Part shown: positions 3,900-62,848 of the stretch, piece by piece | Position numbering within the stretch: position 1 is the stretch's first letter | How the letters are laid out: every line of letters starts with the position of its first letter | Assembly (NCBI GenBank): GCA_964016885.1 | Contig: OZ024750.1 | Span: 47,244,001-47,308,000, forward strand | Length of the DNA: 64,000 bases | Source of the DNA: Eledone cirrhosa | Lineage: Eukaryota | Direction of reading: 5' to 3' | Notes under the pieces: model-generated | Database searches by the model: none | The model's input: only the letters and a program-made list of their open reading frames with translations | What the model was told of the DNA's origin: nothing | Position numbers and translations under genes: made by a program

Positions 3900-4320
3900 G
3901 TAGGAGGTGAGGTTTATTGTAGTACAATAAAGCAATGCAGATATCGGATAAGAAGCACTCTACAGTTTGTAGGACTGGAGTATACATAATATAAGATCAA
4001 AAGATGGTTAAAGGAGTTCCATGTATTTTATTATGCGCATTTCAAAAACAAACATCATCATGCAATAATATTTGTGTTTTCATCAGATAATACAGGAGAA
4101 CATGATATGAAGGCTAAAAAACACTTGTGGATAGTGCAGTTTTAAATCAACATATGTTGATTTAAAACTGCACTATCCACAAGTGTTTTTTAGCCTTCAT
4201 ATCATGTTCTCCTGTATTATCTGATGAAAACACAAATATTATTGCATGATGATGTTTGTTTTTGAAATGCGCATAATAAAATACATGGAACACCTTTAAC
4301 CATCTTTTGATCTTATATTA
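3900..4320 (-). mobile_element. Non-coding fold-back HHR element, family A copy 1
   Basis: Near-perfect palindrome 3987-4320 centred on aatcaacat|atgttgatt, plus an 87-bp unpaired tail 3900-3986, flanked by (TA)n. Second copy at 44681-45009. Confidence 0.9.
4217..4279 (+). ncRNA. Minimal type-I hammerhead ribozyme (mirror copy 4028-4090 on minus strand)
   Basis: ttat-CTGATGA-long stem II-GAAA-TGCGCA (palindromic stem III)-TA-ataa. Stem I can extend (tgtatt/aataca, gttc/gaac). Confidence 0.85.
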
Positions 4321-4520
4321 AATATATATATATATATATAAATAAATATATAAATATATATATATATATAAATATATATATATATATAAATATATATATA
4401 TATATATATATATATATATATATATATATATATATATATATATAAATATATAAATATATATATATATATAAATATATATATATATATATATATAAATATA
4501 TAAATATATATATATATATA

Positions 4521-4912
4521 TCACAGAAAAAAAAAGAATCAGTGTTGCGACGAATGAAATTTATTGAACATATTACAATCGTTTCTCTGGTGACCAGCTC
4601 GAGGCACGATCGCCGTGTAGATCGAACCTGACTTTGAATATCGCAAGGTCCTCAGATAGGCCTTGATTCTTGATTCTTGATTCTAGAATCAAGACGTATC
4701 TGAGGCCGTTGCGATTTTCAGAGTCAGGTTCGATCTTCACATCGATTGTGCCTCGAGCTGGTCAAGAGAGAAACGATTGTAATATATCCAATAAATTATA
4801 TTCGTCGCAACACTGATACTCTTTTTTTCTGTGATATCATGCTCTCGACTATGAGACCATCGAGTGCTCATACCGCCTACCGTATAGGGACGCTTTAAGC
4901 ATCCAACACCAA
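4521..4912 (+). mobile_element. Fold-back element family C (older, imperfect arms)
   Basis: Inverted arms 4521-4684 / 4685-4835 centred on gattct|agaatc, about 77-bp tail, (TA)n flanks. GAAA-CGATTG-TA at 4770-4781 resembles a HHR 3' half. Confidence 0.8.
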
Positions 4913-4935
4913 TTATATATATATATATATAAATA

Positions 4936-5095
4936 CATGAAAAAAGTATGACCCCGATGTTAGAGCTCAAGCCGTTTCGACGCCTAGTTCTGCCGTCGGA
5001 GTCATGCATTTTCCTATTACCCACTCTACTACCCTAAGTACTGAGTACACTGGTGCGTTATGGTCCATTTGTTTCCTTATCACAAATCCTTCGTT
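4936..5095 (+). mobile_element. Family D mini-element (short inverted arm + direct arm + tail)
   Basis: Tail ggtgcgttatggtcca...ttcgtt shared with 19800-19905, 52811-53018 and 56709-56901. Confidence 0.8.
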
Positions 5096-58404: not shown

Positions 58405-58463
58405 TATTATTATTATTATTATTATTATTATTATTATTATTATTATTATTATTATTATTATTA
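58405..58463. repeat. (TAT)n microsatellite
   Basis: Direct reading. Confidence 0.97.
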
Positions 58464-58774
58464 TATTTAATGTAGTTACATGACTTTATTCATATTTATT
58501 TTGCTATTTCAAAATTATACATTATTAAAAAATAAAATGTTTTTTTATTTCATTTTATATATGGGATCTTTAAGATAAATTATGATCGACTCAAGTTTAA
58601 AAGGAACTATAAACATATAGAATAAATCAGCAAATGTGCCCGGCGTTGTCTGAGTAAACAGAGTAGTTTACTGTTCTCTTAAACTTGAATGATACAACTT
58701 TCATTTTTCATAAAGTTCCCAACATTCACTTATTCCCTACACACGCGCTAATATATATATATATATATATATGT

Positions 58775-59468
58775 ATATATATGTATAAAGACAAAGTTTG
58801 TGTATGTGTGTGTGGACAATATTTAATGAGAGCTCATTAATTCTAAACCATTCATGCGATTTCTTTGAAATATTTTAGAGAGCTTCTCCTGTCAAAAAAC
58901 CTGTACATGATCTACAAAGGCTTTCAAAAATCGATATTGGGGCTTCTCGTTTATTTGTGTGAATTTTCGTTAATAATTAAGACAAGAGTTATCTTTCGCA
59001 ATTCGGCTCATTCGCATTTCAATTTACTCTTTGTACTTGAAACAAAGGTAGTCTTCCTTGAGACTAACAATATCATTGTGTATATATCACAACCAGCAAT
59101 CTCTAAAAGATTACTAAGTTAAGTTATATATTTGACATTGTATAATTTATCGTTGATCATACATTAATTGATGTCAATTTTACAATATTATGCTTTGTAT
59201 ATAATAGTGTCTATTATTCACTTCACTGCTCTATTTCATGATGCCATTTTACTATTGTTAAACAAATGTGTACCTAGACTGGATTTCTGTTGTTACATGG
59301 TATAACGGATGACACCGAGATCCCATAATTATATCGCTGGAATAGTGCCTAAAGTTTATAATATTTACATAAATACGTTTTTCTTCTTTGTATTCAAATT
59401 TACATTGTTTAGTTTAAAGAACTACATCGACAGCTACTTGAGCTACCAAGGACGGGTAGTTTAGCTAG
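58775..59468 (+). mobile_element. Probable non-autonomous Helitron
   Basis: 5' tatataaag...gtttgtgtatgtgtgtgt; 3' hairpin ctacc/ggtag (59443-59459) then CTAG|T at 59465-59469. The 5' TC is not clearly visible. Confidence 0.55.
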
Positions 59469-59962
59469 TATGTATATATATATATATATATATATATATA
59501 TATATAGAGAGAGAGAGAGAGAGAGAGAGGGCATAGAACACTGGAAGGTAATATCAGTAGTGGTAGAGCACTCAGTTCATGGGACGTGTTAGGTCATGAT
59601 CATTACGAGCTGAGGATCCGCTAAGATGAAAAAAATATTCTCGGTATGGTGAACTAACTGTTGTGTTAACACTTCTATACACACACACATATATATAATA
59701 TATATATATATATATATATATATATATATATATATATATATATACACACATATATATATATATATATATATATATATATATATATATATATATATATATA
59801 TACATATATATATATATATACATATATATATATACATATATATATATATATATATATATATATACATATATATATATATATACATATATATATATACATA
59901 TATATATATATATATATATATATATATATATATATATATATATATATATATATATATATATA

Positions 59963-62848
59963 TACAATATTAAATAAATGGAAAACTATATTTATAAAAC
60001 CATATTTATTTCATTATATATATTTCGGGGATATCATATTAACAATATGCTATGCCTTCATCAGACAAAATACAATATAAACAGTTTTATAGATAAATAT
60101 ATTCGACATACCGTAATAAACATCAACTTCATTTGAAGAGGTTTACTCTAGCAGTGAAAATACAGAGAGAAAGAAAGAGAGAGAGAAAAGAGGGAAATAA
60201 GAAAGAAAGAAAGACAAAACGAAGAAAAGGAAGAAAAAGAAGAAAAAGAAAAAGAAGAAATGCATGGGACAAAATAGAGAGATGGAAAAATAGATAAAGC
60301 GAAGAGCTTCATGTAAAGAGACAGAAAGAGATATATATATATATAGAGAGAGAGAGGAAATAGAGATAGATACATATATAAATATAGATATAGAAAAATT
60401 AGGTAGTGGGAGGTCATTTTGAGTAAGTGTATCAATGATGCATTTATTTATTTATTTATTTATTTATTTATTTATTTAGCTCAAGTATTAATGTAAGGGA
60501 GATATATAGAGAGATATAGAGAGATATAGAGAGAAAAAATTTAAAAATAGCCAGACATATTCGAGGCGTAGAAAACCCTATGTTTTAATGTATTAGTATT
60601 TATAAAACTTACACTATATTGTAAATATCAGTATTCCTGAATGAAACAAGTATTCACAATGCGTGAAGATTCATTATCTTATGTTTAGTTTTTTAAAAAA
60701 TTCATATGTCTATGTGAATCCAACTGATTCACTCCGCAAATTCAAAGTTACCGGAAAACATTCTCAATGTGGTATAAAAATTTGAGCGTATTATTATTCT
60801 TGCGATTACTCTACAAGATTATCTATCAAGCAGAAATAGAGAGCAGGTTTCAATATACTAATCGAAAATATATATTATATTATAAGCAGAGATAACAATA
60901 ATAATGATAATAAGTAAAAATATATAAAAATATAAAAATATAGAATAGAAAACTAAAAAAGAATATTACGAAAGAATATTACATAATAAAAATATTGCAT
61001 ATTAAAAATACTACGTATTCAAAATATTACGTATTAAAACTTTACATATAAAAATATTAAAAATAAAAATTTACATATAAAAATATTAAAAATAAAAATA
61101 AAATAAAATAAAAAATAAAAATATTATAGAATACTACAATACTAAAAGAATAAAAATGAAAATAAAAATAAAAATCTTTTGATTCCTAAATCTTTGATTC
61201 CCTCTTTTTACTCTTTTTATTGTTTATTTTATTTTATTTATTTTTATTTTTATTTTTATTTTTATCTAAACATTCCTCATGAAAAATTAAGCTACCCTAA
61301 AAGCCGATGCTCCAAATTTTTTGAATTAACCTTACACTTGATAAACTTATATATTAAATATAGGAACATATGTAGACATTATTGGACATCATAATCTTTT
61401 TTGCGATATTCCTTGCTAGATGTGATTTGATAGATAATTTTTGGCTTTGTCTTGTAGTGAACTTGGCAATATATTGTCAATTAACTTTGAAGGGTTGTTC
61501 TTTGTGGTTTATTTTTATTTTCATTTTTATTTTTATTTTTATTTTTTATTTTTATTTTTATTTTTATTTTTATTTTTATTCTTTTAGTATTGTAGTATTC
61601 TATAATATTTTTATTTTTTATTTTATTTTATTTTTATTTTTAATATTTTTATATGTAAATTTTTATTTTTAATATTTTTATATGTAAAGTTTTAATACGT
61701 AATATTTTTAATACGTAGTATTTTTAATATGCAATATTTTTATTATGTAATATTCTTTCGTAATATTCTTTTTTAGTTTTCTATTCTATATTTTTATATT
61801 TTTATATATTTTTACTTATTATCATTATTATTGTTATCTCTGCTTATAATATAATATATATTTTCGATTAGTATATTGAAACCTGCTCTCTATTTCTGCT
61901 TGATAGATAATCTTGTAGAGTAATCGCAAGAATAATAATACGCTCAAATTTTTATACCACATTGAGAATGTTTTCCGGTAACTTTGAATTTGCGGAGTGA
62001 ATCAGTTGGATTCACATAGACATATGAATTTTTTAAAAAACTAAACATAAGATAATGAATCTTCACGCATTGTGAATACTTGTTTCATTCAGGAATACTG
62101 ATATTTACAATATAGTGTAAGTTTTATAAATACTAATACATTAAAACATAGGGTTTTCTACGCCTCGAATATGTCTGGCTATTTTTAAATTTTTTCTCTC
62201 TATATCTCTCTATATCTCTCTATATATCTCCCTTACATTAATACTTGAGCTAAATAAATAAATAAATAAATAAATAAATAAATGCATCATTGATACACTT
62301 ACTCAAAATGACCTCCCACTACCTAATTTTTCTATATCTATATTTATATATGTATCTATCTCTATTTCCTCTCTCTCTATATATATATATATATCTCTTT
62401 CTGTCCCTTTACATGAAGCTCTTCGCTTTATCTATTTTTCCATCTCTCTATTTTGTCCCATGCATTTCTTCTTTTTCTTTTTCTTCTTTTTCTTCCTTTT
62501 CTTCGTTTTGTCTTTCTTTCTTTCTTATTTCCCTCTTTTCTCTCTCTCTTTCTTTCTCTCTGTATTTTCACTGCTAGAGTAAACCTCTTCAAATGAAGTT
62601 GATGTTTATTACGGTATGTCGAATATATTTATCTATAAAACTGTTTATATTGTATTTTGTCTGATGAAGGCATAGCATATTGTTAATATGATATCCCCGA
62701 AATATATATAATGAAATAAATATGGTTTTATAAATATAGTTTTCCATTTATTTAATATTGTAAATATACTCCAAGTATTTGTCGAGTGCTTTTATATCAG
62801 TTATAAATATTTACTAGTTGTAACCCAACAATTTTAAATATAACTTTA
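59963..62848 (+). mobile_element. Fold-back HHR element family B copy 2, about 1.2-kb near-perfect arms
   Basis: Arms 59963-about 61175 / about 61550-62762, spacer about 370 bp, 86-bp tail, (TA)n flanks. Confidence 0.92.
62653..62718 (+). ncRNA. Minimal type-I HHR (mirror copy 60007-60072 on minus strand)
   Basis: Same sequence as the HHR at 20932-20997. Confidence 0.85.

Follow-up and report, generated by a model that had tools for sequence, protein, structure and literature searches.

Palindromic insertions of Hydra-clade Penelope-like elements in Eledone cirrhosa pair two fixed ends, each lying next to one copy of a duplicated leader motif

A 64,000-nucleotide (nt) stretch of the Eledone cirrhosa genome (assembly GCA_964016885.1, contig OZ024750.1, positions 47,244,001 to 47,308,000; here called the window, with positions counted from its first letter) contains insertions of Penelope-like elements (PLEs) in (TA)n tracts. 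We examined those in which two arms lie head to head, one of them, the tailed arm, carrying a 3′ tail that the other, the short arm, lacks. Seven families, A to G, were distinguished, with G standing for an old element at 5206-9072 and F for the element at 855-3572. The proximal (short-arm) end is called P, the distal (tailed) end is called the D-end, and negative positions are counted from P. What the analysis adds is a near-strict pairing of one end of each kind per insertion, together with a clade-wide duplicated motif, RYTC..GAGYNCT, that marks both ends.

The first copy of family A (A1) spans 3900-4320. Its tailed arm is on the minus strand, with the distal end at 3900 and the tail at 3900-3986, its short arm is on the plus strand and ends at about 4318, and its centre is a palindromic CATATG. 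The proximal motif (ACTC..GAGTGCT, 3954-3981, minus strand) is located at the tail start, and a motif scan found a hammerhead ribozyme (HHR) core, CTGATGA..GAAA, at 4221-4268 on the plus strand with a mirror copy at 4086 on the minus strand. The second copy (A2, 44683-45009, motif at 44928-44955) has a short arm that reaches about 95 nt further 5′ than its tailed arm (-169 versus -74) and is therefore not a fold-back copy of that tailed arm. B1 (19987-21129) has a minus-strand short arm ending at 19987, a plus-strand tailed arm with its proximal point at 21041, HHRs at 20088 (minus) and 20940 (plus), and a motif at 21047-21069; B2 (59963-62848) consists of 1.2- to 1.5-kb arms of 3′ untranslated region (UTR), with HHRs at 60064 (minus) and 62661 (plus) and a motif at 62768-62790, and no open reading frame (ORF) match was obtained within it. 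In C (4518-4912), the minus-strand short arm ends at 4518, and the plus-strand tailed arm has its proximal point at 4837, its distal end at 4912 and a motif at 4841-4868; C has no canonical HHR and is linked to a Hydra-type ORF through another locus of the assembly (L140). D1 (4936-5095) pairs a degenerate short arm with a tailed arm ending at 5095, and D2 (52811-53018) joins a short and a tailed arm at the point where D arms cluster (-60/-64). In E (55068-55260) and D3 (56709-56901), the tailed arm is on the minus strand and the short arm is on the plus strand, and the junction of E is within the HHR. G has a short arm at 5206-5861, a tailed arm at 8337-9072 with a 141-nt tail and an HHR at 5368 (minus), and it is broken by a high-copy repeat of about 185 nt. 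An earlier note on this DNA had described these insertions as lacking ORFs, which is incorrect for G, where decayed ORF remnants are present at 7063-7919 (minus). An ORF-bearing copy of family E (45621-47568, plus strand) is 5′ truncated, encodes a Hydra-type endonuclease (EN) with CxCX5C, has an HHR at 47414 and stops at the tailed end. F (855-3572, plus strand) is a 5′-incomplete PLE of another clade, with a reverse transcriptase (RT), a CX4CxxC linker, a CCHH-type GIY-YIG domain, fixed ends at 3514 and 3572, a 58-nt tail and no motif.

Self-alignment of the window confirmed the inverted arms that had been reported for A1 (332/334 identical positions), B1 (926/1028), B2 (2614/2762), C (278/320), D2 (126/133), D3 (104/108), E (80/102) and G (539/595), while A2 was asymmetric and D1 was a poor palindrome (52/68). 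Tails measured on natural tailed arms were 89 nt in A, 87 in B, 75 in C, 78 in D, 91 in E, 58 in F and 141 in G, those of A to E and G being within 1 to 5 nt of the lengths given previously (TA ambiguity), and the fixed internal ends gatcttatat(ta) of A and ttaatattgta of B were found as described.

On sequence grounds, families A to E and G are the 5′ leaders, or pseudo-long terminal repeats (pLTRs), of Hydra-clade PLEs inserted in (TA)n. The PLE origin suspected earlier was borne out, since each of the families A to E was linked to an ORF for RT and GIY-YIG, and G was linked to ORF remnants only. In read-through copies, the tailed end continues for 43 to 92 nt as 5′ UTR before the ORF begins: about 80 nt in A (L264-L271), 49 nt to the ATG in B (L151 and L154), 43 nt to a decayed ORF in C (L140) and 92 nt in D (L157). 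An ORF was present behind the tailed end at 14 of 15 E loci. Nine extended C loci had no linked ORF, and the C link rests on L140. In the F copy L201, the ORF begins 42 nt past the tailed end, and the ORF start of this family lies far upstream of position 855. Tandem pLTR junctions were present at L140, L151, L154, L157, L201, L264-L271 and L275-L289. Because the tailed end runs on into the ORF, it is not the end of the element, and both RT starts are probably internal. The earlier note had each insertion primed from both strands of the target, once at the RNA 3′ end and once internally; the two fixed ends paired in inverted orientation agree with the first part, but the placement at the RNA 3′ end is not supported, as the tailed end of A to F continues into the ORF.

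The ORFs of A, B, D and E contain RT and GIY-YIG parts with RWR/RWI, SDKT, CxCX5C, CxxC..E and CxH and a single cysteine in the GIY-YIG core. For C, only the N-terminal half was obtained (RWR and SDKM), the EN part was not recovered, and G was too decayed for EN motifs. These features are like those of the EN-containing PLEs of the Hydra clade, described as having RWK-like and DKT motifs, a CxCX5C linker, CxxC and CxH in the EN, no CCHH, an HHR in the pLTR and a (TA)n target (PMC8557442). The assignment to this clade comes from the protein motifs and from a leader motif common to published Hydra consensuses (see below). Among named homologues, those closest to the family B protein were from Argonauta hians, with 40% identity. 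F differs, with its CX4CxxC linker and two cysteines and two histidines in the EN core; its PLE domains were recognized by Pfam with scores below the curated cutoffs, and it is Neptune-like by motif. The 855-3011 protein, once proposed for in vitro tests, belongs to F, a family of another clade without the motif, and is N-terminally incomplete.

The insertions had also been called ribozyme bearing. Canonical hammerhead cores (CTGANGA..GAAA) were found in A, B, E, F and G, but a motif scan found none in C and D, unlike the Hydra-clade PLEs with an HHR in the pLTR (PMC8557442). In L157:4330-4390 (D) and L140:1500-1640 (C), GAAAC is kept near the hammerhead position and CTGANGA is lacking, so the ribozyme of these two families may be degenerate or a variant. 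D is among the most abundant families despite lacking a canonical hammerhead. An Rfam search of the window gave no hammerhead among the 150 of 205 matches listed, which were microRNA-type chance matches to palindromes and repeats, and Rfam gave nothing on six metagenomic loci.

Each family was searched against the whole assembly (3.0 Gb), with 30 loci taken per search and the best 40 of 82 to 3565 candidates scored, a top-scoring sample rather than a census. All queries but one contained tail sequence, so the distal peak was partly set by such queries and by the reference end. Two sharp classes of 3′ ends were found in all seven families, the kind of result that the earlier note had named as support. 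With overlapping loci kept, 139 of 141 matches ended in the two peaks in A, 90/91 in B, 78/85 in C, 166/199 in D, 111/123 in E, 75/88 in F and 44/48 in G. The bases beyond both peaks were (TA)n, into which nearly all ends ran. We then counted head-to-head pairs of up to 3.2 kb without an inner (TA)10 in 262 loci plus the window, after deduplication. Among 182 same-family pairs, 179 were tailed plus short, 2 were tailed plus tailed and 1 was short plus short; G gave no pair under this rule. Independent arms would give mixed pairs in at most half of the cases. In a second count, which started from 340 tailed arms, the partner was a short arm in 212 cases and a tailed arm in 7; 65 had no recognized partner, and 56 reached the locus edge. 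At L043 and L069, unique sequence past the TA runs appears inverted on both sides, as if the insertion lay inside the centre of an older palindrome.

Could the short palindromes instead be nonautonomous DNA elements, similar to miniature inverted-repeat transposable elements (MITEs) or Helentrons, or copies of one palindromic master? The D and E elements do cluster near 200 nt in length and are abundant, with 2912 and 3565 first-look candidates, respectively. However, every family is continuous with a PLE ORF, the two ends are unequal, lengths vary between about 100 nt and more than 2.8 kb, and all 44 D junctions examined differed from one another. This explanation is largely refuted and, in our judgement, highly unlikely. 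The earlier view of the insertions as products of retrotransposition was upheld by the two templated arms, the differing D junctions and strand-switch joints in raw reads.

Palindromes beside (TA)n are prone to artefacts, and the raw reads bear on whether the joints arose during assembly or by read fold-back. We used the D read-through junction L157:4260-4640 and restriction site-associated DNA sequencing (RAD-seq) reads of three samples that carry the species label of the best-matching run; because the start sites of RAD reads are shared, neither their depth nor their number measures copy number. Loose ends were found at 4389 (3078 to 3543 reads) and at 4469 (8760 to 12285 reads), 80 nt apart, and both continued as (AT)n. 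Opposite-strand D joints recurred in the Illumina reads of all three samples and in independent contigs from a fourth run, so that the palindromes expected in raw reads were found for D. For B, where related subfamilies dominated the reads, this test yielded no clear peaks at the ends. Together with arms that differ by 0.2 to 6% within elements and ends that are fixed and asymmetric, these data leave an artefact with a negligible likelihood.

How far the two arms extend was informative about their origin. Of 148 pairs of families A to E, 56 had a short arm that extended beyond the tailed arm in the 5′ direction by more than 10 nt, 21 had the reverse, and 71 were ties (p 8e-5); 37 incidental pairs gave 16 to 4 in the same direction. 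Where a short arm holds sequence that its tailed partner lacks, it is not a fold-back copy of that partner. This bears on an explanation in which a single event of target-primed reverse transcription (TPRT) is followed by template switching or self-priming, and the EN, reading the motif as DNA, cuts the ends at adjacent AT-rich sites. It combines EN-mediated resolution, suggested by Craig et al. in 2021 (PMC8557442), with self-priming, suggested by Arkhipova et al. in 2013 (PMC3846280). The many centres that are short palindromes (such as CATATG in A), the equal reach of the arms in 71 of the 148 pairs, the near-palindromic GAGCACTC and the need of the Drosophila virilis EN for tail sequence in DNA (as cited in PMC11167929) are in its favour. 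The 56 short arms with sequence of their own could not be copies of the tailed cDNA, the inserted DNA does not include the distal motif, and compensatory changes in the motif (see below) favour a single-stranded stem; we regard this explanation as unlikely.

The inner junctions had been described as variable. Although all 44 D junctions differed, they were not random, since 72 of 88 D arm 5′ ends were within 7 nt of one point, -61 (23/32 in incidental copies). Joins mostly showed a few shared bases or 1 to 30 nt of filler. The A arms clustered at -167 (33/88) and the B arms at -192 (18/48; incidental copies 0/20), and the clusters in E and C were weak. The cluster points fall on TTAGT-, TCAT- and TCAC-like words, which we take to resemble initiator elements. 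For the Penelope element of D. virilis, an internal promoter within the pLTR has been described (PMC2377424). Run-off at the predicted hammerhead cut was considered as a source of the arm ends and rejected, as only 1 of 180 arms was within 4 nt of it. The arms of one element were less divergent than arms of different elements: 2.1% versus 7.2% in A, 0.2 versus 1.2 in B, 5.8 versus 6.9 in C, 4.1 versus 7.2 in D and 4.4 versus 5.5 in F (permutation p at most 0.0002 in these families; E not significant). Direct repeats with an informative base were found adjacent to the junction in 8 of 22 informative elements among 165 (null mean 2.1, maximum 6 in 200), including repeats of 14 to 15 nt in four A copies. 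A cruder test for target site duplications (TSDs) gave 49/167 against a null of 46.2.

Both end sites lie 3 to 11 nt upstream of one copy of the duplicated motif. In read-through copies of A, B, C and D, RYTC-N(8-17)-GAGY-RCT starts 3 to 10 nt past P and past the D-end (8 of 8 sites), and a motif start was equally close in 0 to 1.7% of background windows. The P site of E has the motif with a longer loop, and that of G has it with a much longer loop and TCT, matching the longer tails of these two families. A motif after the D-end of E was predicted first and then found: 500 assembly copies (247 plus 253) had it, against 0 in the reversed control; these copies are nearly all one sequence, and the motif starts about 6 nt past the end. 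F lacks the motif after both ends in its read-through copies. In L201:2730-2830, a GCTAA(A)CAA word is loosely repeated after each F end, at distances that differ, and may be the counterpart of the Hydra motif.

An earlier metagenome scan with a single protein had given nothing; a scan with an alignment of the B protein and 29 homologues gave 77 loci with 32 to 39% identity, of which 52 had a near-complete N terminus and were used, yielding 45 distinct leaders with at least 110 nt upstream. Two motifs were present in 27 of these Hydra-like leaders, one in 11 and none in 7. Two motifs were found in 4 of 373 ORF control windows, and the reverse-complement control was raised (15/51) because the 3′ half of the motif is near palindromic. 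The motifs were spaced by 54 to 82 nt (111 in one case), with the first 41 to 60 nt after the hammerhead and the second 12 to 48 nt before the ATG. Of 25 alignable metagenomic 3′ copies, 11 reached the end of their contig and 2 read through, and among the 12 informative ones, 8 stopped 0 to 4 nt before a motif. The outer pair of the motif appears to covary: with a rule blind to the outer base, it was Watson-Crick in 67 of 73 sites (9 more had no partner in range), and all 10 cases with an outer base other than C paired (6 T-A, 3 A-T and 1 G-U). A first blind rule was noisier (51/79) and often took the wrong 5′ strand, and the second rule was set after seeing the first. The published Hydra-1_Ajap consensus has both motifs before the ATG, and two other published Hydra consensuses have the first motif within their tails. 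The searched literature, including PMC13282606 and PMC8969392 in their accessible text, contains no report of the duplicated motif or of a counted one-of-each pairing; subscription papers and figures may bear on this.

Each motif is likely to be an RNA hairpin that holds one RT-EN subunit. We consider it probable that both target strands are primed on a single RNA, with one subunit on each of its two hairpins. We put at about even the chances of a broader proposal, in which Hydra-clade PLEs integrate by programmed twin priming, with the two subunits of an RT-EN dimer docked on a tandem pair of conserved RNA hairpins that follow the hammerhead and precede the start codon. We infer the steps from binding to joining as follows. 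A leader-containing transcript, either an mRNA 5′ leader or a tandem read-through, would most likely bind two subunits at its two hairpins. The linker-guided EN would nick both (TA)n strands, in A possibly with a stagger of about 14 to 15 nt. Each target 3′ end would pair with a small number of A/U bases immediately 5′ of a hairpin, through a probable 2- to 6-nt TA/AT homology at each start, and would then prime. The proximal cDNA would run ahead, and the distal cDNA would follow by strand displacement; both would extend to the RNA 5′ end, which may be the transcription start, or stop short of it, and those reaching it would give short MITE-like palindromes. The cDNA 3′ ends would be joined head to head by 0 to 30 nt of microhomology or filler, and each cDNA would serve as the second-strand template of the other. 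A start in the 5′ leader would yield short palindromes, and a start in the downstream pLTR would yield ORF-bearing copies. Inserted short copies without the distal motif would be dead-end products rather than masters, with no tailed progeny expected; solo palindromes without tailed progeny would fit the unique junctions and the near absence of short-plus-short pairs.

This scheme finds support in the pairing counts, the D reads, the 5′ reach, the arm divergence, the direct repeats next to the junction, the motif and in vitro precedent (PMC11167929), and we favour it with some confidence. A competing explanation has two separate ribonucleoproteins (RNPs), each with its own RNA, priming the two strands at the distal and proximal motifs, with the asymmetry coming from the protein complex instead of a shared RNA. 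Two templates would account more simply for arms that copy the same stretch over lengths of up to more than 1 kb, and several observations weigh against a single RNA or against the hairpin scheme. Two cross-family pairs were found, B with D (L036:1501-1936) and E with D (L131:604-943), both tailed plus tailed, and they demonstrate that a single site can receive two RNAs. Tailed-arm 5′ ends were not significantly enriched at P (13 versus 9.1 expected, p 0.13). The 5′ bias ran in the opposite direction in C (3 to 7) and in F (5 to 8), and in unbiased copies a 5′ cluster was found only in D (23/32, as opposed to 0/20 in B). Gene conversion could account for the similarity of arms within an element. 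All 19 F pairs were one of each without the motif, so the pattern does not in general require the motif. The definition of the motif came after inspection of A to D, the outer-pair covariation was counted without correction for relatedness, and in an anole PLE the RT start was reported to need no target homology (PMC11167929). Still, both cross-family pairs were tailed plus tailed while 179 of 182 same-family pairs were not, the arms of one element have private variants in common, and the short arm usually leads, making two RNPs improbable compared with priming on one RNA. At L036, a short D 5′ stretch is repeated three times at the join.

Other features of the window were noted. Two further degenerate D copies, one made of a tail and a partial tail and the other of a very small short arm with a tail, are present at 19617-19762 and 19799-19906. 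E tail remnants lie amid TA runs at 52571-52762 and 19154-19200, the former preceded by a C-like motif stretch in the same orientation. A separate palindrome at 9899-10224, outside all seven families, is symmetric at its ends and has a central (TA)n run. A further PLE body at 41220-44580 (ORF pieces at 42139-43619) has RT and GIY-YIG matches of yet another type, and one at 38985-40630 is about 60% identical to the protein starting at 855. The high-copy repeat of about 185 nt, often in tandem, is found at 5370-5479, 5857-5999, 12720-13090, 17710-17895, 26532-27319, 55379-55823 and elsewhere; we take it to resemble an octopus short interspersed nuclear element.

The layout itself is the known PLE arrangement of an inverted pLTR with a one-sided tail (PMC3846280, PMC8557442), here abundant, long tailed and of the Hydra clade. 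Craig et al. list an Octopus member in this clade, draw an inverted 5′-truncated copy with a tail on one end as a typical PLE and credit the tail to EN-mediated resolution; their accessible text has no remark on a leader motif, and it states tails of 30 to 40 bp for Hydra-clade PLEs, versus 75 to 141 nt here (PMC8557442). In Adineta Pen2/Pen2a and D. virilis Penelope, head-to-head inverted pLTRs, a one-sided tail of 31 to 34 bp and palindromic junctions are likewise found, along with TSDs of 8 to 10 bp and solo pLTRs. They differ in having few copies, in not being targeted to (TA)n and in having been explained by self-priming on an antisense template, and the accessible text of these papers has no count of end pairing (PMC3846280, PMC2377424). 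A biochemical parallel is the anole Poseidon element PAc, which in vitro cuts and extends both strands from two internal RT starts that bound the tail, needs no HHR cleavage and has a predicted dimeric protein. Its starts are 111 to 118 nt inside the ORF at an AC-rich stem-loop, with no strand difference and no target homology (PMC11167929). Here, in contrast, the probable starts are upstream of the ATG, on TA/AT-like bases before a repeated motif, and are used one of each in vivo. Non-LTR retrozymes are also ORF-less, HHR-bearing pLTR derivatives of PLEs, but they are described as head-to-tail tandem units with a type I HHR and are thought to self-amplify (bioRxiv 10.64898/2026.07.22.740005). 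The present elements are head-to-head single insertions, each with a unique junction, and lack an HHR in C and D; they are also unlike MITEs in their unequal ends, variable lengths and junctions, and continuity with RT ORFs. Finally, in the twin priming of L1 put forward by Ostertag and Kazazian, both target strands reportedly prime on one RNA and the cDNAs are joined by microhomology, with the second primer said to act at variable sites and to yield a nonoverlapping inversion. The present insertions have a fixed second site and arms that usually overlap.

The origin of the inverted pLTRs and the one-sided tail of PLEs has been named an open question (Craig et al. 2021, PMC8557442; Frangieh et al. 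2024, PMC11167929). Programmed twin priming, if true, would assign one fixed internal start to each target strand and would explain both features, with the hairpin spacing setting the tail length and the short palindromes being run-off copies of the mRNA leader. The pairing offers an in vivo rule, one proximal and one distal end per insertion, and the motif is a candidate cis-element, kept across proteins that are only 32 to 39% identical, that could be tested in the existing in vitro assay. For annotation, the abundant MITE-like palindromes of animal genomes rich in (TA) would become recognizable as products of retrotransposition. The findings point to what may be a compact RNA tag for double-strand target-primed insertion.

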